Part shown: positions 6,915-50,409 of the stretch, piece after piece
Layout: the number at the start of each line of letters is the position of its first letter
How positions within the stretch are numbered: the first letter of the stretch is position 1
Source of the DNA: a virus
Virus record (IMG/VR): IMGVR_UViG_3300034782_000062
Location: 32,001 to 96,000 of that record
Strand: one strand, 5' to 3'
DNA length: 64,000 nucleotides
Notes under the pieces: generated by a model
What the model was told of the DNA's origin: nothing
What the model saw: the letters and a program-made list of their open reading frames with translations, nothing else
The model's database searches: none
Translations under genes and position numbers: made by a program

Positions 6915-6917
6915 CGA

Positions 6918-7688: not shown

Positions 7689-7880
7689 CCTTCCAACCTC
7701 CCGTCATGAACGGGGTAACAGCTCATTGCGAGCCGCCTCTGGCCGGAACGATGTTAAGATTGCCGCACAGACCGGCCAGGACAATGATGGGTATCAGCCC
7801 CTCCCGTCACCAGGACGAGAGGGGCGTCACCTCACTTTTTCGCGTCAGAGACTCTAAGGGGCTCTAACCCCTTGAAATCC

Positions 7881-12455: not shown

Positions 12456-12665
12456 CTATCCCTGACGGCAGCGCTGCAGGCGCAACTGTGCTGCTCGATG
12501 CTCCAGCGTCGCCAAATGCAACTCATGTTCTCGCAAACGCAATTCTTCTTCGTATGATGCACAAAGCGAAACAGCTCTAGCGGGCGGCACGGGGGCATGT
12601 GTTCTCACACGAGTAGGTGCTGCTGCACCTAGCCCACCCTGCACCCTCTGATACTCGTAAGACAT
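12456..12665 (-). CDS. Small protein with YEY-GLG leader
   Basis: MSYEYQRVQGGLGAAA; GGAGAG RBS. Confidence 0.6.
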   Translation of the reverse strand: MSYEYQRVQGGLGAAAPTRVRTHAPVPPARAVSLCASYEEELRLREHELHLATLEHRAAQLRLQRCRQG

Positions 12666-12675
12666 GCTCTCCTCC

Positions 12676-13179
12676 TTAATCGATTGCGCCTTCTTCACGC
12701 AAACGTTCTTTCTGCTTGTAGCCGATGTAGAGTCCGACAGCGAAAGGAACGAGACCAGAGCCTCCAACGTAACGACCGCTGCCCTGACTCACACTTTCGA
12801 GGCCAGCAGAGACGATGGTCAGCACGATGCCCGCGCCAATACCAGCAAGACCGCCGTAGATGGCACCCTTCTTCGCCGCCTCCTTCTTGTATCCCTTCGC
12901 TCCGGTAATCGCTGCACCAGCAGCTCCGAGCGCGAACGGCATGGCAATTCCAATCACGACGATCCCAAGCAGGAGAAGAGCGAGTGCCCCGACGCCAGCT
13001 CCGATGGCAAGAGCCCTCGTTCCGTTGTCTGCAGGAGCTGGAACGCCCGTATCAACAAAAGCCTGATCTTCGAGCTGCAAACCAGGAACGGTAACTGCCA
13101 CCGGCTCAGCGCCGTTGCCATTTGTACCAAGTCCGAATCCCATCATCGACTCGTAAGTCGCTGGAGTGTACTCGTACAT
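12676..13179 (-). CDS. Multi-TM membrane protein with YEY leader
   Basis: MYEYTPATYESMMGFGLGTNG; 3-4 hydrophobic helices. Confidence 0.8.
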   Translation of the reverse strand: MYEYTPATYESMMGFGLGTNGNGAEPVAVTVPGLQLEDQAFVDTGVPAPADNGTRALAIGAGVGALALLLLGIVVIGIAMPFALGAAGAAITGAKGYKKEAAKKGAIYGGLAGIGAGIVLTIVSAGLESVSQGSGRYVGGSGLVPFAVGLYIGYKQKERLREEGAID

Positions 13180-13188
13180 CGTCCCCTC

Positions 13189-13548
13189 CTACGCCCTTGC
13201 GCGAGAAGCAAGACGCTGCGCTCGATCCAGCTCGTAGCTTGCCCTCAGCTCTCGCTCCCATTGCTTCTGTTGCCAAATCCCGACGACCGCACCTGCACCA
13301 GATGGAATAGCAAACGTTCGCAACCAGAACAGGACCCCACTCATCGGAACAATCGCCTGAGCGGCTTGTGCCAGCGCAACAGCAGCGACGCCGCCCTCAA
13401 TGACGGCGTACTTGCGGTCCATTGGAGAAACGATGGCAGCAGCAGCTCCGCCGAGCGCGAACTGCGCCAGGACAAGTCCGAAGTTCCCCATCGAGGTCTC
13501 CGGTTGCCCCATCCCAACAGCTTCTTCCCAATATCCCAGCATCGCCAA
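13189..13548 (-). CDS. Multi-TM membrane protein
   Basis: MAMLGYWEEAVGMG leader; three hydrophobic segments. Confidence 0.75.
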   Translation of the reverse strand: MAMLGYWEEAVGMGQPETSMGNFGLVLAQFALGGAAAAIVSPMDRKYAVIEGGVAAVALAQAAQAIVPMSGVLFWLRTFAIPSGAGAVVGIWQQKQWERELRASYELDRAQRLASRARA

Positions 13549-13554
13549 TCTCCT

Positions 13555-13896
13555 TTATGACTTTTGAACGACGTCAAACACCTTGTGGGTGCCGCCCTTG
13601 AAGTTCTCCACCTGTTTTATGTCGCGCAGGTGCCCAATGATCCTAACGCGGTATGCCTTATGAGGACTTGTGGCGTAAGAGAATCGATAGCTTTGTGTCG
13701 AGCCCACGTAACAGTTGATATCGAGACGACCTACAACACGAGGCATAATCCCCGGATACCACTCGTCCAGCTCGGCCTGAAGCTCCCGGTTTGGAGCACG
13801 CTGCCCGCACGGTGCTACACGAAGAGTGACACTCCCACCAGACTGACCACCAGCAGCGCCACCCATCGAGCTTTTTGTTGTGTACTCGTAGCTCAT
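13555..13896 (-). CDS. Small soluble protein with YEY leader
   Basis: MSYEYTTKSSMGG, start right after the upstream stop. Confidence 0.7.
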   Translation of the reverse strand: MSYEYTTKSSMGGAAGGQSGGSVTLRVAPCGQRAPNRELQAELDEWYPGIMPRVVGRLDINCYVGSTQSYRFSYATSPHKAYRVRIIGHLRDIKQVENFKGGTHKVFDVVQKS

Positions 13897-13897
13897 A

Positions 13898-14650
13898 TCA
13901 CCCCTCGATCCCATGTGAGGTGATGCGGAGGTTGGGGCCGTCTATGACACTCTCGACTCCTCCTCCGTCCAGGTTGATGATCGCCAAGAAAACTCGGTTC
14001 GGTCGCCGCGGATCAACCCACCCGTCAGGTGACGCGACCAAAACGTTCTTTCCCTTCATCGTACCCTCGGTGATCTCTCCAGTATCCAGGGGCCGAACGA
14101 CGAATCCAATACACTCTCCGATGAGCATCACCTCTTCTGGCCAACCGTAAGGAAGCTGCACTGGTTCGAGTGCGCCTCCCTCATCTGAAGGAACCATGAA
14201 CTTCACAACGTTTCGATCGTGATCGTGGTAGTACTCGACGGTCTCACCGCGCTGGTGCCATTTGTCACTCTCATAGAGCGTTCGCATTGCGACACCGAGT
14301 AAGCTCACCTGCTCAGGCCAGTCAACACCTTCCAGCTCGAATACCGAGTGCTCCTGCCCGTGAAAAGGGAAGACCGGTTCAAGTTTCTTGCGCGAGTGAA
14401 AGCGCTTGAACGTTTTCGCTGCAGCCTGCGCCGACCTTGCGTCGTTTCGCTCGATGGGCGAACCTGGGTTCGGACGCTGATGACGCAGCTCTCGCTGAAT
14501 CTTGTCATAGACCTCTTCAGCTCGCTCGCGAGTGACGGTGATCCCCTCACGAGCCTGCGTTGCGATGATCGTCCTGATCATCAGTTCGCGTCGTTCGATC
14601 GGGTCATTGAGAATATCGCGCACTTGGACGCGCCGCCTACTGCGAGCCAT
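13898..14650 (-). CDS. Hypothetical two-domain protein
   Basis: 250 aa; helical N-terminal domain, PNP linker, beta-rich C-terminal domain. Confidence 0.75.
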   Translation of the reverse strand: MARSRRRVQVRDILNDPIERRELMIRTIIATQAREGITVTRERAEEVYDKIQRELRHQRPNPGSPIERNDARSAQAAAKTFKRFHSRKKLEPVFPFHGQEHSVFELEGVDWPEQVSLLGVAMRTLYESDKWHQRGETVEYYHDHDRNVVKFMVPSDEGGALEPVQLPYGWPEEVMLIGECIGFVVRPLDTGEITEGTMKGKNVLVASPDGWVDPRRPNRVFLAIINLDGGGVESVIDGPNLRITSHGIEG

Positions 14651-14652
14651 GT

Positions 14653-15057
14653 CTACTCCATCTCCGACTCGAAGGTACCGAATCTTTCGTCCTGAGGACG
14701 ATTATCAAGTCTGGTTGTCAGCCAGAGAAGTGCCGTCGGAACGACGATCGCTAACCCAACGCACAGCCATGGATTGATCGGTGTCTGGGTGCTCACCTCG
14801 GAAACAATTTCACCCATTGCGAGAGAGCCTGTTCCAACATACTTCGCCCTTGGTGGAAGACTGTGGCCCGAGGTATCTGGGGCTTCGCCGAGAGCGCTTC
14901 CGAGCGCTGGCGAAAAAGGCGGCGGCGGGACTTCCTCACCGTACTTGGGACGATCAGGCTCTGGAGCCTGATAGTATTTGTACTTCCCGGTCGTCCAATC
15001 CCAAACGCTGTACATTCCATTGGTCGCGATCGCGCCGTAATTAACTCCGGGCCTCAC
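14653..15057 (-). CDS. C-terminally anchored membrane protein (YSVWDW..GKYKYY motif)
   Basis: C-terminal TM; aromatic N-terminal motif. Confidence 0.7.
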   Translation of the reverse strand: MRPGVNYGAIATNGMYSVWDWTTGKYKYYQAPEPDRPKYGEEVPPPPFSPALGSALGEAPDTSGHSLPPRAKYVGTGSLAMGEIVSEVSTQTPINPWLCVGLAIVVPTALLWLTTRLDNRPQDERFGTFESEME

Positions 15058-15350
15058 AGCTCCTCCACCTCCTCCTGCTTAGACTTGTGCAAGAGGTACG
15101 CCCCAATGAGCACCATCGCCGGAACAGATGCCCACATCCATGGGCGCATCTGCTCGATCATCATTTGCGTCTGCAATTGCGCAACACGGGCTTGCTCTTC
15201 TTGTCGAATAGCCTGTTGCCTCTGTTGCTCCAGCCTCTCCCTCTCTCCCTCGGACACTGAACGCGATATGGCATAGCCAGCCCATCCCGTACCAACAACC
15301 AACGGAACGCCATACAACAGAGCAGGGACCCACCATGGATTTGGCTGCAT
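15054..15350 (-). CDS. Two-TM small membrane protein
   Basis: TM - Q/E/R coil - TM; starts MQPNPWW. Confidence 0.7.
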   Translation of the reverse strand: MQPNPWWVPALLYGVPLVVGTGWAGYAISRSVSEGERERLEQQRQQAIRQEEQARVAQLQTQMMIEQMRPWMWASVPAMVLIGAYLLHKSKQEEVEEL

Positions 15351-15623
15351 CTATCGCTCTCTCTTCCTTAGGATAAAATACATCCCCAGGATGGCTGTCG
15401 CTGGGATTGCGATCATCCCCATCGGAACGAGCAGCCCGTACATTGCTTGCGACTGAGCCGCCGCTGCACGTCGTCGCTGCTCCTCAATCTGCTGCTGCTG
15501 GTCCTGAACTTCCGTCGTTCCGTTCTGTTGAAACGCACCAAAGGCCATACCGGCAAAAATCAACGAACCACCGATGAGGATCGGATAGGCAGCAGCAGCA
15601 ATTGGTCCGAAGTTTCGCTCCAT
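15351..15623 (-). CDS. Two-TM small membrane protein, same architecture as 15054-15350
   Basis: Start MERNF by TGATG coupling; TM - Q-rich coil - TM. Confidence 0.7.
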   Translation of the reverse strand: MERNFGPIAAAAYPILIGGSLIFAGMAFGAFQQNGTTEVQDQQQQIEEQRRRAAAAQSQAMYGLLVPMGMIAIPATAILGMYFILRKRER

Positions 15624-16297
15624 CACGACCTCTTCTTGAACTTCCATGCGGCGTAAAGCATGAACATGGCCGCTGCAGAGGTCCCAATCACAAGAGCCCA
15701 TGGGAGCTGAATGCCAAGATCGAATCCACCTCCTGGTCCGGCCGGTACAAGAGTTCCGGCCATCCTCTGAGCATCAGCCGCAGAGAACCCCATCCGAAAG
15801 AGAGTCGCTTGATCCGGGGTCCCTGTCTGCGGAATACCACCGCGCGCTTGGGATGCCCGAATAGCCGCTGCGAATGACGTTGCTTCCCCAACACCATCAA
15901 TCGGACCCGGATCAATACCCATTGAGCAAAGACGCGATTGAATATCCCAAATGACCCGTGAACGAGACGTCGTCAGGCTGTTCCTGTCGACGCGATGGGA
16001 CTGACACGTCGCTACCGAAGGCTCTATCCGCCCACCAGCCTGAGTAGGACATGCCAGGAAAGGACGAGGCCAGTGGGGTGGACAGCACCACGTCGAACCA
16101 GCCACTCCCTCAACCGAACACGTCTGCCCTCTGGCAGAAGGAACGCATCCCCCCTCACGAGCACACGCCCCTGCATCTGCCGTATTCTCGAAGCATCGAG
16201 TGACACCCCCTCCAACAACTTCTGAGCAGGGGGGGTTACCAGAAATATCCGTCCAGCCGGGGCCGACGAGCCCGAGCCCTGTCGAGTACTCGTACAT
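15623..16297 (-). CDS. YEY-leader protein: Cys-rich CCP domain, peptidoglycan-binding domain, C-terminal TM
   Basis: MYEYSTGLG; WCCPP; DIQSRLCSMGIDPGPIDG...QTGTPDQATL (PG_binding_1-like). Confidence 0.8.
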   Translation of the reverse strand: MYEYSTGLGLVGPGWTDISGNPPCSEVVGGGVTRCFENTADAGACAREGGCVPSARGQTCSVEGVAGSTWCCPPHWPRPFLACPTQAGGRIEPSVATCQSHRVDRNSLTTSRSRVIWDIQSRLCSMGIDPGPIDGVGEATSFAAAIRASQARGGIPQTGTPDQATLFRMGFSAADAQRMAGTLVPAGPGGGFDLGIQLPWALVIGTSAAAMFMLYAAWKFKKRS

Positions 16298-16950
16298 CAG
16301 CCCATCTCCTCTGAGAACAGCATGCGCTCTTCTCGCTTCCGGTCGAAGTAGCGCTTGCCGAGATAAGCCGCCGTCCCCAGGATGCCTACAGCAACCCAAA
16401 CCTTTGGATCGGACAGAATCTTTCCGATGCCAGTGATCGGCGTCGTCGTGATCCTCGCTGTCGGTGTCGATCCTTCAGGAGGAAGCTCTTTCGTCGGAGA
16501 CTGAACAGGCGGCTGCGTAGTCGTAGGAGGTTCCACCGTCGGAAGACCGGGAATCTCGGGCGGCAAAGGGAGCTGTGCCTCCTCCTCACGAATCTGAGCG
16601 GCCTCCGGAGTCTCGGGATCGGCCCGCGGTGTTCCACTCGGGCAGCAAAAGCAAAAACCGGGGTTACCAGAAGCAGTCTCACAGCGCTTCGGCTCATCTC
16701 CGGTGAGAAACGTCTGCATATTCTGAACGCAGCCGTAGAGGTTGGCGACGTTGAGGTCTGGAGGATAAACTTCACCAGCGTTCTGTGGATCCTCCATGAA
16801 GCAAACTTCGTCCGGAGGATACTGTCTTCCTACGTCATCCGTCGTACACATACACTGAGGACGACCAAAGAGCGGGGCCAAATCCCAACTGCTCATCACA
16901 GACCAGCCGAGAGCACCGAGACCGCCAGGTCTTCTGTTGTACTCGTACAT
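16297..16950 (-). CDS. YEY-leader Cys-rich CCP protein, Pro/Thr stalk, C-terminal TM
   Basis: MYEYNRRPGGLGALGW; CFCCPS. Confidence 0.8.
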   Translation of the reverse strand: MYEYNRRPGGLGALGWSVMSSWDLAPLFGRPQCMCTTDDVGRQYPPDEVCFMEDPQNAGEVYPPDLNVANLYGCVQNMQTFLTGDEPKRCETASGNPGFCFCCPSGTPRADPETPEAAQIREEEAQLPLPPEIPGLPTVEPPTTTQPPVQSPTKELPPEGSTPTARITTTPITGIGKILSDPKVWVAVGILGTAAYLGKRYFDRKREERMLFSEEMG

Positions 16951-17402
16951 CAGATGTGCCCCTCTCTCTTCAAATACCGATACCCAAACCAGCCGCCGAC
17001 CCCGAGAGCCAACAACGCCACGACCGGACCAAACATCGAGGCAGATGCCACCTGCGGCAAAGCTGGAGGCTGAGGAGAAGTAGGCACTGGCTGAGGCTGC
17101 GGTTGCGGTTCTGGCTCTACCGGAGCTGGCTCGGCGGGCTGCACTGGGAAGTCTGGGAATCCAGGAGGACAGCACCAGACGGCACCAGCATTATTCTCCG
17201 CGGTGTTGCAAGGCCACCCAATTCGCTCACAAGCTCTGTCATAAGCGAACTGGTATTCATCCGGCTCCACGAAACAGTATTGATTCCCCCCTGGAAACTC
17301 CAAGCACTGCTTCTGTGTCCTCTCTCCGCTGAAGATCTGACCGAACGTTGGAGGTTCATTGACCTGCGACCAGCCCATCCCTCTGGGGTTGTATTCGTAC
17401 AT
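16950..17402 (-). CDS. YEY-leader Cys-rich CCP protein, C-terminal TM
   Basis: MYEYNPRGMGW; six Cys ending WCCPP. Confidence 0.85.
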   Translation of the reverse strand: MYEYNPRGMGWSQVNEPPTFGQIFSGERTQKQCLEFPGGNQYCFVEPDEYQFAYDRACERIGWPCNTAENNAGAVWCCPPGFPDFPVQPAEPAPVEPEPQPQPQPVPTSPQPPALPQVASASMFGPVVALLALGVGGWFGYRYLKREGHI

Positions 17403-17405
17403 GGA

Positions 17406-17843
17406 TCAGAACTCCTCTTCGAGTTCCAGCTCTTCTCGCTTCGCCTCGTACTCCTTGTAGCCAAAAAAGGCGATGCCAGCGAGACCAAGTGCTCCAAGCC
17501 AGAACCACCACCGGCTCGATGACTGCTGAAACCATCGACCGATACCCGGTGGCGCAGGCGGCGCAGGCGGCGTCTGACCCGGTTCCAGAGGAGGCGACCC
17601 CGGTGGACGCGGCCAACCAGGAGGACAGCACCAGACGAGACCCGGGTTTCCAGCCGGTGAGGTGCTGCAAGGCTGATTGATCGGAGCGCACCCCTGAGCA
17701 CGAGCGAAATCTTGCTCGGGCGGCTGACCATCAACGGTCGTCGTTCGAAAACAGCGCTGCTCGTAGCCCGGATAGTCAGGACACATCGGATGACCGACGA
17801 CGTCCGACCAACCGAGGCCGTACATCTGCCTAAAACCGCCCAT
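17406..17843 (-). CDS. Cys-rich CCP protein, C-terminal TM
   Basis: MGGFRQMYGLGW; six Cys ending WCCPP. Confidence 0.85.
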   Translation of the reverse strand: MGGFRQMYGLGWSDVVGHPMCPDYPGYEQRCFRTTTVDGQPPEQDFARAQGCAPINQPCSTSPAGNPGLVWCCPPGWPRPPGSPPLEPGQTPPAPPAPPGIGRWFQQSSSRWWFWLGALGLAGIAFFGYKEYEAKREELELEEEF

Positions 17844-18762
17844 AGCGCTCCTCCTCGAACTCGAACTCTTCTTCCTTCTTTCGAGTCATGTAGGCACCAA
17901 GGACGATGATCCCCAGAAGACCAAAGCCTGCAGCAGCCCACGGGACCCAGGATGGAAGTCCGGTTGTCGGAATCGAAGGCCCCATCGACGCGGTTTGAAC
18001 TCGCGGCGGTTGCTGCGCGACGCTGGGAGGCACAGGTAGCGGAGAAAACGATGGCTTCACTACGGTAGCGACACCCGTCGGGAACGTCGTTGGTGTAGTC
18101 GTAACGGGAGGAGGGCCGGATGGAACGGTCATCCTCTGAGCGACAGTCGGGAACTGCTGAACGACCTGTTGCCAGCTCTGGCGAGCAGCAAGGCATCGGA
18201 CGCCGGCCTCGGTCTCATCGCCCCATCGACCATCGACCCCATAGCGGGGGAGAGTACATCCAGCAGCAATGACTGCGTTCTGCACTGCCTCTACCTGAGG
18301 GTCGGGCGGCAAAACAGTGCGAGCAATCCTTCTTCCAGCGGCAGCAACATTCTCCGCAAATCTCGTCAGAAGACCCTCTGCCTCTACGATTTCTTCGGCC
18401 GTGGGCGCCGGAAGTCGATTCATTTCTTCAGGGCTCAGAGCTTCTGCAAAGGTCAAGTAGTAATCACAGTCACCGGGGATATTAGGAGGACTCATCACGT
18501 TGCAATATGTTGCAACTTCAAAATTGCTGCATGGGGCGCCGCCTGAATCTACTCGACACGCCTCTGCTGCCGTAAATAGTCGTCGACATTCCGTAAAGTC
18601 AGTGCCGATCCTGTCAGGGGCGAGGTTAAAACAGACGTCTCTGGCTTGTCCCCGAGAGAGAACACCTGTCTGAACGTCGCGAAGGAGATCGGCTCCATCA
18701 CGGCCTTCGCCGTTTGTGCCCAAAGCGCCAAGCCCACCAGGTGTTCTTCGGTATTCGTACAT
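17830..18762 (-). CDS. YEY-leader protein: Cys-rich helical domain, PG-binding domain, C-terminal TM
   Basis: MYEYRRTPGGLGALGTNG; AGCTLPRYGVDGRWGDETEAGVRC. Confidence 0.85.
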   Translation of the reverse strand: MYEYRRTPGGLGALGTNGEGRDGADLLRDVQTGVLSRGQARDVCFNLAPDRIGTDFTECRRLFTAAEACRVDSGGAPCSNFEVATYCNVMSPPNIPGDCDYYLTFAEALSPEEMNRLPAPTAEEIVEAEGLLTRFAENVAAAGRRIARTVLPPDPQVEAVQNAVIAAGCTLPRYGVDGRWGDETEAGVRCLAARQSWQQVVQQFPTVAQRMTVPSGPPPVTTTPTTFPTGVATVVKPSFSPLPVPPSVAQQPPRVQTASMGPSIPTTGLPSWVPWAAAGFGLLGIIVLGAYMTRKKEEEFEFEEERYGRF

Positions 18763-18780
18763 TTTAAATGTTTAACCTCT

Positions 18781-19464
18781 TTAATAGGCGCCTGTCGGTG
18801 CCTCGACCCAGCGTGCCTCTCTCTCTTCAATGTCCACGTCGCCGACACCTCGGCCGCTCATCAGGTACTGCATCAAGATGAAAAGACCGATACCACCAAC
18901 ACCCACTGCCAAAATGGTCCAAGTTGCGTTCCACTCAGAACGGGCCGGTGTAGGCTGAATCGGCTGCGAGGGTTGCGTTGCGACTGGCGCTGCTGCCGCT
19001 ACAGGCCGTGGACGAAATTCCTCCGGCACCTCCACCAAAGAAAGCACAACAGGATATCGCCCAACGATACTTCCCCATCCGACAGCCTGCGCCAAACAGT
19101 TGATCCCGGAACGCGTTTCGGACCCGAAGAGACCATCTGCGCCGTAGGTCGGCAGCCTACAGCCTGCTCGAAGAATAGCCATCTGAAGCTCGCGCACCTT
19201 GTCACGTCGAGGGCAGCAGTAGTACGCACCAGCGTCTGTGGCGTCTGGCTGAGCGCAATAGGGCTCACCACCAACCTGCACTCCAACACAAGCCCGACTG
19301 TCTGCTCGACCCTCCTGCCCGGAAGGAACGCAGGCGACCTCGCCATCAGCCATCGGGAAGTCGGCACTTCCACGGCATGATTGGCCGATCCAGCTCCATG
19401 CCCCATTGGAACCGAGTGCCCCAAGGCTCATCAAAGGCCGACGTGTTCTTGTCCGCATATACAT
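18781..19464 (-). CDS. CCP domain plus PG-binding domain, C-terminal TM
   Basis: MYMR...SLGALGSNG; YYCCPR; AGCRLPTYGADGLFGSET. Confidence 0.8.
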   Translation of the reverse strand: MYMRTRTRRPLMSLGALGSNGAWSWIGQSCRGSADFPMADGEVACVPSGQEGRADSRACVGVQVGGEPYCAQPDATDAGAYYCCPRRDKVRELQMAILRAGCRLPTYGADGLFGSETRSGINCLAQAVGWGSIVGRYPVVLSLVEVPEEFRPRPVAAAAPVATQPSQPIQPTPARSEWNATWTILAVGVGGIGLFILMQYLMSGRGVGDVDIEEREARWVEAPTGAY

Positions 19465-19472
19465 GTCACACC

Positions 19473-19811
19473 TCACACAACGAAGGGAACGAGCGAGAAC
19501 GCTCTACCAATACCGTCCGCATAGGCGAACGTCGGCCCAATCGCCGGCCATGGGGCCAGCATATTCGGGTACATCGGCTCACTTCTAAGCTTGTTGTAAA
19601 GAGCAAAGCCGACGGCACCAACCGCCATCGCAAGAGCGACCTTTACCCAAAAATTGAACCGAGTCGCCTGATCCGTCACCATAGACGCCGTCTGCGTGAC
19701 CTGGTCTCCGTTCGTTCCCATTCCCTGAGGAAGGAGAGGTCGAGCAGGATTGTAGGGAACGAGGGTGCTCAGAGGAGAGAGCTGTCGACCCTTCGTCGTG
19801 TAGATGTACAT
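19473..19811 (-). CDS. Small membrane protein with YIY leader
   Basis: MYIYTT...QGMGTNG; one TM; TGATG coupling. Confidence 0.65.
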   Translation of the reverse strand: MYIYTTKGRQLSPLSTLVPYNPARPLLPQGMGTNGDQVTQTASMVTDQATRFNFWVKVALAMAVGAVGFALYNKLRSEPMYPNMLAPWPAIGPTFAYADGIGRAFSLVPFVV

Positions 19812-20293
19812 CAGTATCCCTCCAGCTCCATCTCCTCCTGGCGATTCTTCGCCCATCGCCAGACGAGATATCCACCGATACCCATGACACCCACCGTCAC
19901 TAGGACGGTTCCGATGCCCATGCCGATACCGGCGCCCGCTGCGGTTGCAGCAGCAGGGATCATGGACGCCGCCACCTGCTGTCCATCTCTGGGTGCAGGA
20001 ATCGCTGCTGCTCGGGCCAGCTCAGCGTCGAGGACTCCAGGCGGGCAGCAGTAGAAAACTCCCTGGTTACCCTCATCGGTATAGCAGTGGTGGTTTCCTT
20101 GGAAGCCAACTGTTCTACATCCGATGCGCTGCAAGTATTGAATCTCGGCGGAGCGACCACAGATGAGGTCACTGCTCGGGTCCATTGGGTTCGCGGCTGG
20201 ACCTGAGCACGTTTGCTGAGAGAAACGATGTTCCTGACCTGGAACGGTAAAACCACCGGTCCAGCCAAGGCCTTGACGGGCTCTTGTATACAT
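19811..20293 (-). CDS. CCP-domain membrane protein
   Basis: MYTRARQGLGW; FYCCPP; C-terminal TM. Confidence 0.8.
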   Translation of the reverse strand: MYTRARQGLGWTGGFTVPGQEHRFSQQTCSGPAANPMDPSSDLICGRSAEIQYLQRIGCRTVGFQGNHHCYTDEGNQGVFYCCPPGVLDAELARAAAIPAPRDGQQVAASMIPAAATAAGAGIGMGIGTVLVTVGVMGIGGYLVWRWAKNRQEEMELEGY

Positions 20294-20712
20294 CAGAATT
20301 GACCTCTTCTTTCTCGCTCCTCTTCCATTTTTGCTGTGACATAGGAGCCGATCATGATGATGCCGACGAGACCGACACCGGCAGCGGCCCATGGAAGCCA
20401 TGCTGGAGTCTGACCGTTTCCTGTGACTCGGGGAACGACAGAGGCGACCTGCTGCGCCACTCCCTGTTGTTGGGGAATTGTCATCCTCTGAGCGACCCAG
20501 GGCCAGCTCTGGAGAACGAAATCCCAACCGCGGCGCTCCGCGAGACAACGAGTACCCGCCTCGGTCTCTGAGCCCCATCGGCTGTCGCGGCCAAACCGCG
20601 GAAGAGAACAGCCGTTTTCGAGTATGGCACTCTGAATGGAACCAACCTGCTCCTCAGGCTCTGTTCCCAGGCCCATCATGCCCCGACGACTTCTGGTGGT
20701 GTACTCGTACAT
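20293..20712 (-). CDS. YEY-leader PG-binding-domain membrane protein
   Basis: MYEYTTRSRRGMMGLGT; NGCSLPRFGRDSRWGSETEAG. Confidence 0.85.
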   Translation of the reverse strand: MYEYTTRSRRGMMGLGTEPEEQVGSIQSAILENGCSLPRFGRDSRWGSETEAGTRCLAERRGWDFVLQSWPWVAQRMTIPQQQGVAQQVASVVPRVTGNGQTPAWLPWAAAGVGLVGIIMIGSYVTAKMEEERERRGQF

Positions 20713-20721
20713 GACGACCTC

Positions 20722-21519
20722 CTAATATCCGAGCGCGGCCAGCTCAGCCTCTTCCAGCTCGGCTTCTTCTTCCTCGCCCCTCTTGTAGAGGTAGTATCCG
20801 CCGGCTGCGAGAAGACCAACGCCTCCGAGAATGGCGAGCCAGCCCCACCAAGGCATTCCGCCAGGAACGATGCCAGCCTGCTGAATAGCAGGAGCACCCG
20901 GGGCGCCTGTCGTGGTGGTTGCTGCAGCTCCTCCGCTTGCATAGCGAACGCCGCCCTGTTCAGGGGTCTTCGACCCGGTCGCACCGGGGTCAAAGATCAT
21001 TCCGGATGGACGAGCCGCTCCGGAAGGATCGGCCATCAGTGTGCTGAGGAACGGGAAGCGCCCGGCCACGTTGGTCCAGCTCGTCTGGCCCACTGCGCAT
21101 TCGACACCACTGCGCGTGTTCGGCCCCCAGACACCATCAGCACCCGTTGAGCCGACAGAACAGCCTTGCTGGACAAGCCAGTTCTGCATCTGACGAATCT
21201 GATCACGGCTCACTGCCTGCTGGACGATCGTGCTGGGCTCTCCGGCACCAGGGCGCCCTGGCGGACAGCACCAGGTGTTTCCAGAAGCTCCCGATGATGT
21301 TCGGCAAGCCCCGGTGCCACCTCCCTGCTCAGGATACGTGACCTGGCACCCCTGGCTCACCATGAAGCCCTGTTCGCCGGTAGTAGCACAGGCAATCGTG
21401 CCACCTCCCTCACAAGGGATGCTCCGAGCGATTTCCCGACTCATCGGGATTTCCCAGTTGTACGACCACCCGAGCGCTCCCATGCCCAAACCACCGGGCT
21501 TCCTTACATATTCGTACAT
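20722..21519 (-). CDS. YEY-leader CCP plus PG-binding membrane protein
   Basis: MYEYVRKPGGLGMGALGW; WCCPPG; GCSVGSTGADGVWGPNT. Confidence 0.85.
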   Translation of the reverse strand: MYEYVRKPGGLGMGALGWSYNWEIPMSREIARSIPCEGGGTIACATTGEQGFMVSQGCQVTYPEQGGGTGACRTSSGASGNTWCCPPGRPGAGEPSTIVQQAVSRDQIRQMQNWLVQQGCSVGSTGADGVWGPNTRSGVECAVGQTSWTNVAGRFPFLSTLMADPSGAARPSGMIFDPGATGSKTPEQGGVRYASGGAAATTTTGAPGAPAIQQAGIVPGGMPWWGWLAILGGVGLLAAGGYYLYKRGEEEEAELEEAELAALGY

Positions 21520-21541
21520 TTTTAGCTCCTACTCTTTGCCC

Positions 21542-22405
21542 TTAGTATCCGAGCGCGGCCAGCTCAGACTCTTCACGCAGCACGTCTTCTTCCTCTCCCT
21601 TTCGGTAAAGGTAAAGACCACCCAGCGCGAGAGCGCCGACGCCTCCGAGCAGGCCCATCCAGCCCCACCAAGGCATGCCACCCGCGACCATTCCGGCCTG
21701 AGTGACCGGTGTTGTCCCCGGTGTGGTTCCAGTGCTTGCCACACGACCACCAGGGATGATGGTCTGGCCCGCAGCAACCTGCTCCGGTGTCTTTGTTCCC
21801 ACAACAGGAGGCTGAAAAACGAAGTCTGCAGGACGCGCCTGTCCGGTTGGAGTCTGCCTCATCGTGGCGACGAAGGGGAAGTTCGCAGCGATCACAGTCG
21901 CGTTCCCCTGAGCCTCAGCACACCGAACGGCCGTCGCTGTATCAGGACCCCAGATTCCATCGATGCCGTGTGTGCCGACAGAACAGTTGATGGACTCCAG
22001 CCACTGCTGAAGCTCACGAATGTCAGCACGGGACGCTCCAGCCTGAGTCACAGCCGCGCCCTCACCCGGCGTTGCACGGGGGCGACCAGGAGGACAACAC
22101 CAGACCAAGCCAGCGTTTGCCTCCGTCGTTGGACCTGTACCCGTGAAGCAAATTCGAGTGGAACCGCCCAGTTCGGTGTCGAGGTTCATGGGCCTGCAGC
22201 CTTCATTGGCCATGAAGGTGCTTTCTGCTGTTCGACCACAGGTCACGGTCCCTGAGCCATCCGGCGTTTGACACGAAGGGCCACGGAATGTCTGACCAAA
22301 TGAGGTAAAGGTGGGCATCCAGCCCAAACCGCCCGGGACGGGAACGTATTCGTGGCTGTTCTTCGAAGCGCCCAAACCGCCCGGCCTTCTTACGTACTCG
22401 TACAT
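21542..22405 (-). CDS. Tandem paralogue of 20722-21519 with a doubled leader
   Basis: MYEYVRRPGGLG...HEYVPVPGGLGW; WCCPPG; GIDGIWGPDT; near-identical C-terminus ELAALGY. Confidence 0.85.
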   Translation of the reverse strand: MYEYVRRPGGLGASKNSHEYVPVPGGLGWMPTFTSFGQTFRGPSCQTPDGSGTVTCGRTAESTFMANEGCRPMNLDTELGGSTRICFTGTGPTTEANAGLVWCCPPGRPRATPGEGAAVTQAGASRADIRELQQWLESINCSVGTHGIDGIWGPDTATAVRCAEAQGNATVIAANFPFVATMRQTPTGQARPADFVFQPPVVGTKTPEQVAAGQTIIPGGRVASTGTTPGTTPVTQAGMVAGGMPWWGWMGLLGGVGALALGGLYLYRKGEEEDVLREESELAALGY

Positions 22406-22409
22406 GGTT

Positions 22410-22676
22410 TCACTCTCCTCTTCTCTTCGTGAGGTAGTAAGAAAGGCCCAGCGCAGCCACCGCGCCGAGGCCAAACCAGAACAGACCCGACGACGTAAAT
22501 GGGCCTGATACATTCGTCGTTGCTTGCACAGGTGGCTGAGAAGGGATCGCCTGGCTCTGAGCCTGAATCTGCTGCGCCCCTTGCTGGACCTGTGATGCAG
22601 TTTCCATGGCCTGTGCCACGATGAAGTCAGTGATCTGGTCGATGTTCTCCGCCGTCTGTTGGAAGTTGTTCGACAT
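22410..22676 (-). CDS. Small C-terminally anchored membrane protein
   Basis: Start MSNNFQ with RBS; TM GLFWFGLGAVAALGLSYYL followed by TKRR. Confidence 0.7.
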   Translation of the reverse strand: MSNNFQQTAENIDQITDFIVAQAMETASQVQQGAQQIQAQSQAIPSQPPVQATTNVSGPFTSSGLFWFGLGAVAALGLSYYLTKRRGE

Positions 22677-22678
22677 GA

Positions 22679-23050
22679 TCAATCCTTCGTCAGAAAAACT
22701 GTTATCGCCAAGACCGACGTCACAATGCTCGCACCTATGGCGATCTTCATGAGGCGCTGTGCACGTTCCAGCTCGGCTCGCGTTTCCTGAGCCTCCTGCA
22801 CCAGCTCCTGAGGCCGCTGCTGAAGCCAGCTCATCCACTCGCTGACGTTGAGCCCTGAGGACTCAGTACCCCCATCAGTCCCGAGCGCCGAGGTCACAGC
22901 ATACTGACGCTCACCCATGTGCCTCGGGTAGACCCACATCCGCCTACCAGAAACTGGGTTGATGAGCAGGTAGTAATCGCCAGGCTTCACGTGCGGCCTG
23001 ACAAAATACATCGGGACGCTGACTGGTTTTCGTGCAAGCTTCGATGCCAT
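22679..23050 (-). CDS. Small C-terminally anchored membrane protein
   Basis: Internal SALGTDG; C-terminal TM. Confidence 0.7.
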   Translation of the reverse strand: MASKLARKPVSVPMYFVRPHVKPGDYYLLINPVSGRRMWVYPRHMGERQYAVTSALGTDGGTESSGLNVSEWMSWLQQRPQELVQEAQETRAELERAQRLMKIAIGASIVTSVLAITVFLTKD

Positions 23051-23059
23051 CGGCTGCTC

Positions 23060-23527
23060 CTACTCTTCTTCTCGATACTTCTTGATGAGCATCTGAATAC
23101 CAAGAGCTGCAGCCGCCCCCGCACCCAGCCAGAAGAGCTTGGCGCCGAACGTTGTTCCCTGCTGAGCAGGCGCCTCCGTGGTGCCCATGCTCGGCCCCTC
23201 CAGGACGATGCCGTAGGAGGACGACCCCGGATAGAGCGGACGACCCGGACGTCTGAGCATATTCCACTGCATGTCCGGTGCAGCAACCTCGTAGTCATAT
23301 CGAGCATAGTCATCGAAGAAAATGCCAGTGTTGCTCGGCGGTTCAGTGTCGCCGCTGAAGATCCCGTTGTCTTCGCCCTCGTAGCCGAAGATTCCGCTTC
23401 CGATCACCTTCGGGAGTCGGCCAGTCGGCGCGGCACCGTTGATGACATTGACGCCCTTGAATCCAAGGCGCTGGCGGTACCTTTCCTCACGGGGCGGAGC
23501 TTTTACGATGCTCTTTGGTGGTGCCAT
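23060..23527 (-). CDS. C-terminally anchored membrane protein with GIF repeats
   Basis: Start MAPPK; SGIF, NGIF, TGIF; C-terminal TM. Confidence 0.7.
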   Translation of the reverse strand: MAPPKSIVKAPPREERYRQRLGFKGVNVINGAAPTGRLPKVIGSGIFGYEGEDNGIFSGDTEPPSNTGIFFDDYARYDYEVAAPDMQWNMLRRPGRPLYPGSSSYGIVLEGPSMGTTEAPAQQGTTFGAKLFWLGAGAAAALGIQMLIKKYREEE

Positions 23528-23535
23528 TGTTCCCT

Positions 23536-24069
23536 CTAATCCTTTTTCCGAGTCAGCAGCCAAATGCCAACGATCCCGAACGTCAGCACCAAGCCCCCTA
23601 TCACGATGTAGGGGACATATGACCTCTGTGGCTGAACCACGAGGGGAGCCGCAGTCGATGTTGGAGAAGGCGTTTCTTCTGACGCCGCCTCTCCCTCATC
23701 CGCTGAAGCTGTCGTTGACTGAGCTGGTGCAGGAGTTGTCGTCGTTGGAGCGCCCTTTCCGCTGGGCGCTGGAGCTGCCCCAGTCGGCGTTGCGCCGCTT
23801 GGCTGCTTTCCACCGGGCGCTCCAGTTGAAGACCCCGTAACCTCAGTCGCCGTATTGCTCGCAAACTGCTGAGCGAGCCCGGAGAACAGATTAGCGATCC
23901 CCGAGTAGATGCTTGTATCGCCCGAAGACTCCCTACCACCCTGAAGCTCTGGCGGCATCGGACGAAGACCCATTCCAGCGGACACCAGATCCTCTGGCGT
24001 CGCGAAATCCATGTCTGGGTTATCGATGTCGCCGTTCGTCCCCAGGCCAGTCATATACTCGTAAGACAT
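23536..24069 (-). CDS. YEY-leader protein with Ala/Pro/Thr stalk and C-terminal TM
   Basis: MSYEYMTGLGTNG. Confidence 0.8.
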   Translation of the reverse strand: MSYEYMTGLGTNGDIDNPDMDFATPEDLVSAGMGLRPMPPELQGGRESSGDTSIYSGIANLFSGLAQQFASNTATEVTGSSTGAPGGKQPSGATPTGAAPAPSGKGAPTTTTPAPAQSTTASADEGEAASEETPSPTSTAAPLVVQPQRSYVPYIVIGGLVLTFGIVGIWLLTRKKD

Positions 24070-24732
24070 CTACTTTTTCCTCACGAGCAACCAAATACCG
24101 ACACCAGCGAAACCGAAGACAAGCAGCCCTCCGACGATGTAAGGAGCGATCGTTGACCCGACAGAAGGCATAGGAGCTGTTACAGCAGCGGGCGAAGGAC
24201 CAGGAGGAGGAAGGGTTTCCGTGGCTGCTGCAGCACCCGCGCCGGGAACCATCACCTGACCTGTGAGGTTGGCCGCGGTTTCCATGGCAACGCCCTGTGC
24301 CTCTTGATTTGCCTGACCCCCGATACCAAGTTTCGTTGCGACCGTCTCAAACATCGCACCGACGTCGGTAGGCCACCACGTCTGCTTTTCTGCTGTTGGG
24401 GCCGGTTCACCTGCTGCTGTTGCCGGAGCACCAGTAGTAGGGCACGAAGCCCCTACCAAGCGCTCATATTGTGAAAAAGCTGGGTCGCTGGAAAATCGAG
24501 AACGAAATCCATCGAGAACGCGACGCGCCTCATCACATCGATTCGCACGAGCAAGAGCCTGTGCTCGACGTAGAGCGTAGTTCTGAGGAGTTGCCGGGTC
24601 TTCGCGCTCCGCTTGTTCCAGAAGACGAATTGCTTCTGAGTAGTTCCCTGAATCGTAAGCGGTGCGTGCCTGCGCAGAGAGTCTTTCCGCCTCCTCGACG
24701 GTCCCCATCCCGGTCATATATTCGTAAGTCAT
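24070..24732 (-). CDS. YEY-leader TPR-like domain membrane protein
   Basis: MTYEYMTGMGT; ARTAYDSGNYSEAIRLLEQA...DP...ALRRAQAL TPR pattern. Confidence 0.8.
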   Translation of the reverse strand: MTYEYMTGMGTVEEAERLSAQARTAYDSGNYSEAIRLLEQAEREDPATPQNYALRRAQALARANRCDEARRVLDGFRSRFSSDPAFSQYERLVGASCPTTGAPATAAGEPAPTAEKQTWWPTDVGAMFETVATKLGIGGQANQEAQGVAMETAANLTGQVMVPGAGAAAATETLPPPGPSPAAVTAPMPSVGSTIAPYIVGGLLVFGFAGVGIWLLVRKK

Positions 24733-24740
24733 GATTCTAC

Positions 24741-25370
24741 CTAGTCTTTCTTCCTTATGACCAGCCAAACAAGGAAGGTTCCGAGGCCGATCGCCGTCGA
24801 GGCCAGTGTGATATGGGTCTGGTATCGCTCTATCCAGGTCTGTTCTTCGGCAGCTTGCTGGCCGGCAGAGTCCGGAGGAGTCTCCTCAATAGGGAGAACC
24901 TCGTTCTCGGCGGCTGCGCCTGTACGAAGAGCCGCTTCCTGTGCATACGTCGCAAAGCCCTGGGCAGTGGGCTTGTTTGCGCCTGTGCCACCTGGCATAG
25001 GGGCCGCTGGAACCTGTTGACCTGTAGGCATACCAATGGCTCCCTTGACCCAATCGACGATACCCCCTGTATCCTGAGATGGGGCAGCCCCTGGCTGAGC
25101 CGCTACGGTCGACTCTTCTTCTTCTCTGACAGCTTCGCCGAGGATAAGAGTAGGAGTGGATGGACAGCAGTAATGCTGACACGCCTCGTTCAGCCTTCCG
25201 ACCTGACCAGTGTCACTGGGTATCTCAACACAGCTCATTCGACTGGCGGTGGATGCCTCTCTCGGCCTGAAACAACGTTTCTGACCCGTCACAGAGCCCT
25301 GCGTACAAGCTCCTCTTGGGTCCGAAAATCCGAGAGAACCCAAGCCAGGACCGTAGTAATGATAGGACAT
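24741..25370 (-). CDS. CCP-domain membrane protein with YHY leader
   Basis: MSYHYYGPGLGSLG; HYCCPS; C-terminal TM. Confidence 0.8.
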   Translation of the reverse strand: MSYHYYGPGLGSLGFSDPRGACTQGSVTGQKRCFRPREASTASRMSCVEIPSDTGQVGRLNEACQHYCCPSTPTLILGEAVREEEESTVAAQPGAAPSQDTGGIVDWVKGAIGMPTGQQVPAAPMPGGTGANKPTAQGFATYAQEAALRTGAAAENEVLPIEETPPDSAGQQAAEEQTWIERYQTHITLASTAIGLGTFLVWLVIRKKD

Positions 25371-25378
25371 CGTTTACC

Positions 25379-25870
25379 TTAATCCTTCATCTTGGAGACG
25401 AGCCACACGCCGCCGATGACAACCCCTGTCACTCCGACTCCAACGACAGCCCAGACCCACATGGGAGTAGGCCGACTCCCTCCAAATGTTCCACCGACGC
25501 GGGCTTGAGCCTCGCGAGCGAACGCAGCCGCTTGTTCACGGCTGATCTCTTCAGCAAGTTCCCGCTCCTGTGCGGAATACTCACTCGCGATGCCTCTACG
25601 AGCCTCGTTGATAGCATCACGCTCAGCGTTCGCTCTTTCATCGAAATACTGTTGCCTTGCCATGTCGTCGAGCATCGACGACATTCCGGATTCGCGCCCC
25701 TCAGCGTAGGCACCCTGCTGGTAACGAATCTGGTCGATGGTGTTGATCGCACCAAAGATCGCACCGACCGTACTTCCAACAGCGCCAGCGGCTGCACTGG
25801 CGTAGTCTCCGGCCGTCGTTCCCATGCCGACATCGCCCCCATCAGGGGCACCTACGAAGACGAAGCTCAT
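25379..25870 (-). CDS. Coiled-coil membrane protein
   Basis: GDVGMGTT leader, amphipathic/hydrophobic helix, coil, C-terminal TM. Confidence 0.75.
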   Translation of the reverse strand: MSFVFVGAPDGGDVGMGTTAGDYASAAAGAVGSTVGAIFGAINTIDQIRYQQGAYAEGRESGMSSMLDDMARQQYFDERANAERDAINEARRGIASEYSAQERELAEEISREQAAAFAREAQARVGGTFGGSRPTPMWVWAVVGVGVTGVVIGGVWLVSKMKD

Positions 25871-25879
25871 CGAAGCCGC

Positions 25880-26770
25880 CTACTCCTCTTCGTCTTTCTT
25901 CTTGGACATGTACCAGAACACGCCACCGACGCCGCCTGCGAGAACGAGCGCGAGAAAAATCCAAACGACCGGTGAGGTACCCTGCTGAGTGACGATCGGA
26001 GCCGCTGTCGTTGACGGCGCAGACGACACAGCAGCTTCCGTCTCACGAAGAGCCCGAAGCTCTTCTGCACGCTGCGACAGCTCCTCAAGACGAAGCTCAT
26101 GCTCCTGCTGACGGGCGAGCTGCTCGGTCTGGAACGCCATGTCACGAGCCTCAGACTCAGCTTCCATTTGCTCGCGACGAAGCTGAGCTTCCAGCTCCAT
26201 CTCGGCCTCCGCTCGCTGATGACCCGTGACCGTTGTGGCGATACCGACTCCCAGCTCAGAGAGCGGAGCCAGGATAGAGCCGATGCCTTCCATGATTCCG
26301 CCAGCTCGTGATCCGTTGGTACCCATCCCCATGTCGCCGTCGTTGCCCATGCCGCCGCCATACAATCCGCTCGGGCCGATCGAAGGTCCATAGGTGACGT
26401 AAGTGCCAGGCTGCACCCTTCGAGCAGCTCGGCCACCAACATTCACCACTGGAGAACCAGCGGCTCTTTGCGCTGCTTCACCGTTCATGGCGAAGCGGGC
26501 GCCATTCTCCATGTCGTAGTAGTACATCTGCCCACCTTTATCTCCATTGCCCCTTCGAATTGGAGCTGATTCCGCACCAAGAGTCGCAGCCTGTTGAAAC
26601 CTCGGCCGCTGAGGCACAACGCGGCGAACGGGGCGGCGGGGTGCCTGAACATGCGGAGCAGCACTCACATCTTCTTCGACGGTGCCGACGTATTCAACAT
26701 CGTCATCGTTTCCATTTCCGTTTGCTCCGTAGCTTGTCATGTCTTCATCAAGAGCATCCCACTCGCTCAT
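25880..26770 (-). CDS. Membrane protein with long N-terminal extension, coil and C-terminal TM
   Basis: Internal MGMGTNG; C-terminal half has the same architecture as 25379-25870. Confidence 0.8.
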   Translation of the reverse strand: MSEWDALDEDMTSYGANGNGNDDDVEYVGTVEEDVSAAPHVQAPRRPVRRVVPQRPRFQQAATLGAESAPIRRGNGDKGGQMYYYDMENGARFAMNGEAAQRAAGSPVVNVGGRAARRVQPGTYVTYGPSIGPSGLYGGGMGNDGDMGMGTNGSRAGGIMEGIGSILAPLSELGVGIATTVTGHQRAEAEMELEAQLRREQMEAESEARDMAFQTEQLARQQEHELRLEELSQRAEELRALRETEAAVSSAPSTTAAPIVTQQGTSPVVWIFLALVLAGGVGGVFWYMSKKKDEEE

Positions 26771-50311: not shown

Positions 50312-50409
50312 CACAGGCGTTCATCCCCAGGACGCCCGTGGGATCGTGACCACCACTAATAAGTCCTGGTCACTCTGAGAAAGTGGCCAGGGCTCCAAGG
50401 AGGCAACAA

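Follow-up and report, generated by a model that had tools for sequence, protein, structure and literature searches.

A portable N-terminal Y-E-Y/G-[LM]-G motif in the late gene cassette of an uncultured virus clade, possibly a particle-assembly tag

In bacteriophage T4 the capsid targeting sequence (CTS) is shared by the divergent internal proteins IPI-III; its early residues target, and its last residues direct processing (PMC9026906). In vaccinia virus, the D13 scaffold's removal is correlated with the I7-dependent cleavage of the N-terminus of A17 (PMC4213562), and the adenovirus protease AVP recognises the sites (M/I/L)XGX-G and (M/I/L)XGG-X (PMC7998265). SSIP-1, the Salisaeta icosahedral phage 1, is a membrane-containing phage of the PRD1-adenovirus type with two types of major capsid protein (PMC6356626). 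Here we describe a short two-part motif, Y-E-Y followed by a G-[LM]-G box (hereafter the tag), which is borne at the N-terminus by the products of 19 of the 27 genes of one cassette in the single 182,770-bp IMG/VR record IMGVR_UViG_3300034782_000062. The window that we analysed is the 64,000-nt stretch at positions 32001-96000 of that record, and positions given below are those of the window unless stated otherwise. To our knowledge, it is an open question how proteins are selected for the lipid vesicle of internal-membrane viruses, PRD1-type phages included.

All genes from window position 32011 down to 190 lie on the minus strand, and between 26770 and 12456 they form a cassette of 27 short, tightly packed genes, which sits in the late module of an uncultured clade of viruses of 183-290 kb. 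The tag-bearing products are small and are mostly C-terminally anchored membrane proteins. The cassette is flanked upstream by the gene of a predicted transglutaminase-fold protein, G04, and downstream by that of a large protein, G32, beyond which two predicted jelly-roll proteins of 215 and 256 aa are encoded (Table 1). Twelve cassette genes start with M-(x)-Y-E-Y (12456, 12676, 13555, 15623, 16297, 16950, 17830, 20293, 20722, 21542, 23536 and 24070; genes are named by their lower coordinate or as in Table 1), and a Shine-Dalgarno-like GGAG or GAGG lies upstream of each of them. Seven further carriers have variants of this start, namely Y-I-Y in 19473, Y-H-Y in 24741, M-Y-T in 19811, M-Y-M in 18781, M-Y-G in 17406, L-G-Y-W in 13189 and F-V-F in 25379. 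Both sets had been listed in an earlier reading of the letters of this stretch (the original prediction), and we found all twelve genes and all seven variants as it had described them. The box that had been said to follow is found, as G-[LMF]-G, in 15 of the 19 carriers at residue 7-16; that of 19473 is at residue 30, and those of 18781 and 13555 are degenerate. The product of 21542 indeed has the motif twice, with the second copy of the box at residue 26. In 41 strict instances the first Tyr is present 41 times, the Glu 39 times and the second Tyr 35 times; the box is G-[L28/M13]-G, starts mostly at residue 8 or 10, and is followed by T, W or A in 36. The tag is a bipartite short linear motif in which Y-E-[YFH] at residues 2-5 is followed by 0-8 (rarely about 25) variable residues and then by the G-[LM]-G box, with T, W or A usually next.

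A chance origin of the tag was ruled out, since in the six frames of the 64-kb window Y-E-Y occurs 12 times, each time at residues 2-5 of a minus-strand gene and always within 12456-24732. In the whole record 18 such tripeptides were observed, against about 3.2 expected from composition, and 13 of the 18 are at gene starts. The Tyr (TAC/TAT) and Glu (GAG/GAA) codons of the tag vary as they do in the gene bodies (Fisher p 0.13 and 1.0, respectively); therefore, the conservation is at the protein level. The tags of paralogous genes differ from each other at many synonymous sites, which rules out a nucleotide-level (mRNA) element as well as recent gene conversion.

A homolog search with G14 gave nine proteins with 40-79% identity, in which Y2, E3, Y4, G9, L11 and G17 are invariant. 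The contigs of these G14 homologs were compared together with five loci from a metagenome scan, all five of the same clade. L001-L005 and L013-L017 come from hypersaline and sediment metagenomes. Syntenic cassettes with the tag on the positional orthologs were found in the loci L001, L002/L003, L004/L005, L014, L015, L017 and L022, and in the most diverged syntenic cassettes the tag decays to M-Y-E-[AK] ... G-[LM]-G-W. Over 15 carrier families, compared across seven related metagenome contigs, identity is 0.54 in the tag and 0.39 in the body, and the tag is the better conserved part in 14 of the 15 (Wilcoxon p 9e-4). Taken as whole proteins, the carriers are only 30-58% identical among relatives, while G04 is 74-80%, the mid-cassette protein G27 65-72% and the 215-aa jelly-roll protein 80-88% identical. 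In a distant subclade (L020 and L021; GC 63-65%, jelly-roll protein about 48% identical) the stretch from G04 to the jelly-roll gene still includes G04 itself, G27 and Cys-rich tail-anchored proteins. Its cassette is much shorter (about 11 genes), and its G32 homolog is also shorter (371-553 aa) and has degenerate motif copies only; the subclade is thereby a natural counterpart without the tag for comparison. G04 thus co-occurs more faithfully with the sites in G32 than with the N-terminal tags. No paper describing the tag or the virus clade was found in the literature search, in agreement with the view in the original prediction that the motif is undescribed. A protein-pattern scan of IMG/VR with the G14 family gave no relative. 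Two degenerate DNA patterns of the tag were also run against IMG/VR, and their sole match, an unrelated protein family of lambdoid phages, was rejected as chance because the match is internal and without a ribosome-binding site.

The original prediction held the carriers to be otherwise unrelated, and this is true of only part of them. In an all-against-all BLASTP comparison of the tag-stripped proteins, 10-11 carriers form one paralog cluster linked by a six-Cys and/or a PG_binding_1-like domain (21542, 20722, 20293, 19811, 18781, 17830, 17406, 16950, 16297 and 15623, with 25379 joined through its transmembrane (TM) helix only). No body similarity to the cluster was seen for the TPR protein, the two proteins with three TM helices, the two without any, and 19473, 23536 and 24741; thus the tag is found on at least 8 other body types. 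Being more conserved than the bodies and present on several unrelated ones, it is a portable N-terminal module, as had been proposed, and is selectively maintained.

TM helices were predicted in 17 of the 19 carriers, 13555 and 12456 being the two without. The carriers have no hydrophobic N-terminal segment; in all but one of them, no 12-residue stretch of the first 40 aa reaches a Kyte-Doolittle mean of 1.0. In the 12-residue flanks of the C-terminal TM helix, 53 K/R residues lie after the helix and 13 before it. G32, G28 and G29 each have three TM helices, an odd number, and therefore their motifs would be on the same side as the tags of the single-TM carriers. The two-TM hairpin proteins G24 and G25 and their orthologs, whose N-termini would be on the K/R side, are never tagged. 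The membrane proteins of the cassette that lack the tag are 25880, 23060, 22679, 22410, 15351, 15054 and 14653. Judged from these predicted topologies, a single face of one membrane, the one across from the basic segments, can accommodate all motif copies. If the particle has an internal membrane, its basic face would look towards the DNA and its motif face towards the capsid.

The motif is not confined to N-termini. G32 has a net charge of +22 to +51 per 100 aa, then of -8 to -18, and the tandem units in its acidic region match the tag of G13 and G14 position by position, as E-Y-[VL]-x-[VR]-P-x-[GS]-G-[LM]-G. The number of internal copies varies from 3 to 7 per G32, and they are present in four of four orthologs (L002, L004, L014 and L017). 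Tandem copies so deep inside a protein argue against a classical N-terminal export signal, and the motif appears from these sequences to work also away from the N-terminus. A second short motif, [D/E/G]-G-I-F, was noticed at the N-terminus of G01 (31157-32011), three times in G10 (23060-23527), and both mid-protein and at the extreme C-terminus of G32 (8717-12232) and of all its orthologs; it was seen in L002, L004, L014 and L017 and in the tag-less subclade (L020 and L021).

A candidate reader or trimmer of the tag is G04. It has an ESM Atlas feature score of 0.95 to Transglut_core clusters, its alignment to the Pfam Transglut_core profile covers profile positions 16-108, and it is the only open reading frame (ORF) of this type in the record. 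Cys112, His171 and Asp187 are invariant across the 5 orthologs of G04, and the gene adjoins the cassette in every locus that reaches this position. In a profile-profile comparison by hhalign, G04 matched gp34 of SSIP-1 with 80.8% and an E value of 1.3e-5 over 107 columns, including the catalytic-type D-C-D cysteine; gp34 is annotated as a structural protein, and it is its N-terminal half that G04 matches. The G04 sequence had no significant match in the PDB and none in 50,697 phage records; in Pfam and PHROGs its one match was Transglut_core, below the cut-off, and six-frame searches of the record with the Peptidase_C39, C5 and C48 models gave no match.

G27, a soluble protein of 250 aa encoded mid-cassette (13898-14650, minus strand), is retained in the distant subclade in a form of 185-190 aa. 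It had no sequence match in Pfam, PHROGs or the PDB. By eye, its N-terminal part has an [S/T]-x-x-x-E-G motif that may resemble VbhA-type antitoxins.

To which type of virus the cassette belongs bears on how the tag is read. The 215-aa protein is the product of the most conserved gene of the clade, with 43 homologs of 45-88% identity on contigs up to 290 kb. Its AF2 model (pLDDT 70.8, pTM 0.73) is a jelly roll, and the SPV1 capsid was its best PDB row, with a Foldseek E value of 2e-3 and a VIA Z of 7.6; other viral jelly rolls came next. For the 256-aa protein, the best rows were a PBCV-1 capsid chain (Z 8.0), EhV-201, SPV1, HHIV-2 and HCIV-1. By these models, the two are probably capsid proteins. 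The jelly-roll proteins had no significant match in PDB sequences, the 50,697 phage records, Pfam or PHROGs. Six-frame Pfam searches of the record gave no match to Terminase_6N, Terminase_6C, Phage_capsid, FtsK_SpoIIIE or Pox_A32; a Pfam scan of 92 further ORFs showed no tailed-phage hallmark among the matches listed (25 of 34 families), and PHROGs scans of 30 large proteins showed none. From the cassette of 27 genes with its TM proteins we infer an internal lipid membrane, and most likely the clade builds a tailless jelly-roll capsid around it. The record has a GC content of 56.7%, is about 95% complete according to CheckV, and carries 31 tRNA genes and one tmRNA gene near one end. A third beta-rich protein, of 228 aa, is encoded together with the two jelly-roll proteins in 6228-8528 (minus strand). 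A homolog of the 256-aa protein, P0089, lies on a 27.8-kb contig of a metagenome-assembled genome named 'Planctomycetota bacterium' at NCBI, a possible lead to the host.

The reading that we prefer, tentatively and with a little less than an even chance of its being right, is that the tag is a bipartite docking tag for particle assembly which is probably trimmed at the Gly box. Each carrier would present the tag at its end farthest from the membrane, across the viral membrane from the K/R clusters, and the polybasic G32 would present tandem copies on its acidic C-terminal arm. The N-terminal Y-E-Y would be read by a common viral partner, which could be a capsid or scaffold lattice and/or G04, and the Gly box would serve as a trimming site, probably for G04, once assembly is complete. 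The data show the motif itself, where it lies, its conservation at the protein level, its internal copies, the genes around it and the fold assignments; the virion location of the carriers, the docking, the cleavage and the identity of the reader we infer.

Several results weigh against this docking-tag reading. About half of the carriers are paralogs by sequence, and part of the sharing of the tag would be simple inheritance. None of the cassette genes of L020 and L021 starts with Y-E-Y, although one keeps a G-M-G-S-L-G-W box; as G04 is kept in this subclade, the N-terminal tag is a lineage-specific elaboration and the enzyme is not strictly tied to it. The Pfam Transglut_core E value is 0.04 for G04 and 3e-4 for its L004 ortholog, all below the curated cut-off, and transglutaminase-fold proteins need not be proteases. 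The residues P4-P3 before the Gly box are not uniform, and M/I/L-x-G-x-G fits about 6 of 17 tags. The Z scores of the jelly rolls do not exceed 8, the arrangement is possibly a common one, and phage cement or decoration proteins are also among the matches. No packaging ATPase of either kind was detected in searches with the terminase and FtsK/A32 models.

The same data can be explained in other ways. The motif might be a pure protease cleavage site, with Y-E-Y as part of an extended recognition site and with no role in targeting or docking. Viral maturation proteases typically have small-residue G-x-G sites (PMC7998265), the tandem sites of G32 lie at a domain boundary, a Cys-His-Asp enzyme is encoded next door, and the subclade that lacks N-terminal tags retains both G04 and the sites in G32. 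One contiguous site is, however, hard to reconcile with a Y-E-Y kept at the extreme N-terminus and a spacing to the box of anything from 0 to about 25 residues. The flanking positions are heterogeneous, and trimming 7-16 residues off 19 proteins would serve no evident purpose unless the removed peptide had acted first; we consider this explanation unlikely. A somewhat lower probability is given to a new Sec-independent export or insertion signal that would bring large N-terminal domains to the periplasmic side in a type-I-like topology. Such a topology, N-out/C-in, is what the positive-inside rule predicts from the K/R bias of 53 to 13; no carrier has a hydrophobic N-terminal segment, and six-Cys and PG_binding_1-like domains usually act outside the cytoplasm. 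Yet G32 has tandem copies of the motif some 950-1040 residues from its start, two TM-less proteins bear it, a hydrophobic core and a consistent charge pattern are both missing from it, the sister subclade shows this Cys-rich tail-anchored architecture with no tag, and seven N-out-type proteins of the cassette do without it. Among the functions offered in the original prediction, export is therefore the one that fits least, and a sorting or maturation signal, perhaps cut at the Gly box, would still fit best. A previously unknown translocation or insertion signal, with which hydrophilic N-terminal domains of 100-280 residues (disulfide-type Cys-rich and peptidoglycan-binding ones) would cross a bacterial or viral membrane with no hydrophobic signal peptide and give type-I-like proteins outside the Sec and Tat signal-peptide routes, we regard as improbable.

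That the tag is functionless, the inherited N-terminus of an expanded paralog family kept by descent and local recombination, is suggested by the 10-11 of 19 carriers that are detectable paralogs from duplication and domain shuffling in one cassette, and by its absence from the sister subclade. An inherited remnant would not be expected to be more conserved than the body in 14 of 15 families, to sit on at least 8 dissimilar bodies (TPR, multi-TM, soluble and low-complexity ones), or to have related copies conserved inside G32, and the many synonymous differences between paralog tags show no recent gene conversion; this explanation has in our opinion only a slight probability. The position of the tag, always beginning at codon 2-3 right after the start codon and the Shine-Dalgarno site, would also suit an element of mRNA or translation initiation, such as a downstream box or a start-codon context, in place of a peptide. 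This is hardly credible, because TAC/TAT and GAG/GAA alternate as in the bodies, the second block is at a variable distance, and peptide-level copies occur deep in G32.

Compared with described systems, the docking-and-trimming scheme has its closest apparent match in vaccinia A17, D13 and I7, where a viral cysteine protease removes an N-terminal peptide of a membrane protein at a small-residue site, coupled to which a jelly-roll lattice is released from the viral membrane. The differences are that vaccinia is a eukaryotic virus in which one membrane protein, A17, is concerned, against about 19 here, that the binding of tag and lattice is here hypothetical, and that I7 belongs to another protease clan, with no C48 or C5 member in the record. 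The T4 CTS is likewise a portable N-terminal peptide of about 10 residues, common to divergent proteins of one phage, that loads varied cargo, and the two conserved blocks with variable spacing described here match its targeting-plus-processing layout. The T4 carriers, however, are soluble proteins in an HK97-fold head and are cut by gp21, whereas those described here are mostly tail-anchored membrane proteins; neither an HK97 capsid nor a prohead protease was detected, the motif sequence is unrelated, the tag has no L/I-x-E prohead-protease site of the gp21/HK97 type, and the function of the tag is a predicted one. In adenovirus, Gly-rich AVP sites lie in many particle precursors, basic core proteins included, and the Gly-rich sites described here recall them. 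Of 17 tags about 6 fit the first AVP consensus, as do the P-M-S-G-M-G repeats in G32, and P, R, S, A or D stands at P4 in the rest, but no adenain-family enzyme was found in the record and Y-E-Y has no adenoviral counterpart.

SSIP-1 resembles this locus in its late module, where gp34 is related to the transglutaminase-fold protein G04 and where the late proteins ORF36, ORF52 and gp53 combine, as do the carriers here, an N-proximal G-[LM]-G with a C-terminal TM helix and a basic end. It differs in its size (43.8 kb against 183-290 kb), in having no Y-E-Y start, and in that gp34 is membrane-anchored while G04 is soluble; gp44-47 of SSIP-1 have no sequence similarity to the jelly-roll proteins described here, and tblastn gave no match. 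LapG and related BTLCP enzymes are transglutaminase-fold Cys-His-Asp proteases with a specific cutting site in a surface protein, a small-residue motif not far from the N-terminus; LapG is periplasmic, depends on calcium, is regulated by c-di-GMP through LapD, and has one adhesin as its substrate. By its sequence G04, with Cys, His and Asp in a Transglut_core fold, would be similar to them, but the context of LapG (calcium, LapD and adhesin) is absent here. Double-glycine leaders are also short, N-terminal, end in Gly and are cleaved off by a papain-like cysteine peptidase; here, however, the record encodes neither a C39 domain nor an ABC exporter, the tag is shorter and has another consensus, and the carriers are membrane proteins of 70-310 aa, not peptides. 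As for Sec and Tat signal peptides, the tag has no hydrophobic h-region, and R-R is present in a few tags only. The tag therefore differs in at least one defining feature from each of the CTS, Sec/Tat, C39 and AVP classes, and the resemblance is functional, not familial.

If the assembly and trimming scheme is true, the tag would provide, for the membrane proteome of a prokaryotic virus with an internal membrane, the first targeting signal to be described, and it would extend the logic of an N-terminal tag combined with a viral cysteine protease, as in T4, poxviruses and adenoviruses, to an unrelated transglutaminase-fold enzyme. With its 10-16 residues the tag is also open to experiment without culture of the virus. 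If confirmed as tailless and membrane-containing, the clade of 183-290 kb would greatly exceed in size all tailless viruses known from bacteria.

Table 1. Window positions of the cassette genes discussed, of G04 and G32, and of the candidate capsid genes (box positions are residue numbers)
Feature	Positions	Strand	Start, box and body
G04, 211 aa, transglutaminase-fold Cys-His-Asp, candidate tag reader/trimmer	26788..27423	-	adjoins the cassette on its upstream side
G05, 296 aa, first cassette gene	25880..26770	-	no Y-E-Y start; internal G-M-G boxes at residues 140-150; C-terminal TM and K-K-K
G06, 163 aa	25379..25870	-	variant M-S-F-V-F, box at 15; C-terminal TM; orthologs M-S-Y-I / M-A-Y-E-H / M-T-Y-I
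G07, 209 aa	24741..25370	-	variant M-S-Y-H-Y, box at 9; six Cys; C-terminal TM; orthologs M-S-Y-E-F / M-S-Y-E-Y
G08, 220 aa	24070..24732	-	M-T-Y-E-Y, box at 8; TPR body (TPR_19 E 2.8e-7); C-terminal TM
G09, 177 aa	23536..24069	-	M-S-Y-E-Y, box at 8; low-complexity body; C-terminal TM
G13, 287 aa	21542..22405	-	M-Y-E-Y, box at 10; second H-E-Y ... box copy at 26; six-Cys and PG-binding-like domains; C-terminal TM; acidic tail
G14, 265 aa, paralog of G13	20722..21519	-	M-Y-E-Y, box at 10/12
G15, 139 aa	20293..20712	-	M-Y-E-Y, box at 14; PG-binding-like body; C-terminal TM
G16, 160 aa	19811..20293	-	variant M-Y-T, box at 8 then W; six Cys; TM; orthologs M-Y-E-Y / M-S-N-Y-E-Y / M-Y-E-F
G17, 112 aa	19473..19811	-	variant M-Y-I-Y, box at 30; central TM; orthologs M-Y-V-Y
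G18, 227 aa	18781..19464	-	variant M-Y-M, degenerate L-G-A-L-G; Cys-rich and PG-binding-like; TM; L001 ortholog M-Y-E-Y
G19, 310 aa	17830..18762	-	M-Y-E-Y, box at 10; PG-binding-like; TM and acidic tail
G20, 145 aa	17406..17843	-	variant M-Y-G-L-G-W at residues 7-12; six Cys; TM; orthologs M-Y-E-A / M-S-M-Y-E-M
G21, 150 aa	16950..17402	-	M-Y-E-Y, box at 8; six Cys; TM
G22, 217 aa	16297..16950	-	M-Y-E-Y, box at 10; Cys-rich; P/T-rich stalk; weak TM
G23, 224 aa	15623..16297	-	M-Y-E-Y, box at 7; Cys-rich and PG_binding_1 (E 2.5e-5, above cut-off); TM
G30, 113 aa, soluble carrier	13555..13896	-	M-S-Y-E-Y, degenerate box; no TM
G28, 119 aa	13189..13548	-	variant L-G-Y-W-E-E-A-V-G-M-G, box at 12; three TM; variant kept in L001, L002, L004, L017
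G29, 167 aa	12676..13179	-	M-Y-E-Y, box at 14/16; three TM
G31, 69 aa	12456..12665	-	M-S-Y-E-Y, box at 11; no TM; similarity to L002 limited to 23-residue tag region
G32, 1171 aa	8717..12232	-	polybasic over about 700 aa; three TM helices; N-G repeats; an acidic region of repeats; G-I-F motifs at the C-terminus; directly downstream of the cassette
Tandem tag-like motif copies in acidic region of G32 (about aa 945-1045)	9098..9400	-	E-Y-L-E-V-P-M-S-G-M-G and E-E-A-Y-A-G-M-G units
215-aa jelly-roll protein, candidate capsid protein, downstream of G32	7881..8528	-	most conserved gene of the clade
256-aa protein, second candidate capsid protein	6918..7688	-	long N-terminal helix and jelly roll; AF2 pLDDT 79.9

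Some other gene products of the window were considered for roles in the particle. The 496-aa protein (3691-5181, minus strand) was rejected as a capsid protein: its C-terminal third resembles the SleB-type cell-wall hydrolase Hydrolase_2 in an ESM Atlas structure search (TM score 0.68 by target), and it is probably a lysis or entry enzyme. It adjoins a TM-anchored protein of 277 aa (2861-3694, minus strand) from an unnamed family of 82 representatives in which a Cys is invariant and a His-Gly nearly so; larger relatives have this domain fused behind Peptidase_M15_4, GDSL lipase or Metallophos domains. The 277-aa protein was found only in the tag-bearing subclade, its tag-less counterpart being a different protein without the His/Cys motifs (two genomes against two). 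This difference is suggestive of a role as a clan-CD-like maturation protease, but a cell-wall/lysis or entry enzyme is the more likely reading, because its family is fused to cell-wall enzymes and its neighbour is Hydrolase_2-like. The protein encoded at 30250-31164 was rejected as a prohead protease, since its sole support is phrog_3778 at E 0.004 and it is an acidic low-complexity protein without Cys. The G-L-G-T near the C-terminus of the 215-aa protein was not retained as a further site, because its position varies among homologs (LG/LA/LT/IA).

Tag-like starts were also seen in two genes outside the cassette. At record positions 16984-17658 (minus strand, L006) a protein with two CarboxypepD_reg-like repeats starts with M-S-Y-E-Y, and at about record position 109219 (plus strand, L008) a protein with C-terminal TM helices starts with M-Y-Y-Y-E-Y. 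In the replication arm of the window, among radical-SAM, ParB-HTH, PD-(D/E)XK and SNF2-helicase genes, an ORF of 587 aa at 50383-52146 (plus strand) has a Cas12f1-like TNB domain (E 8e-7) and is TnpB/Cas12f-like.

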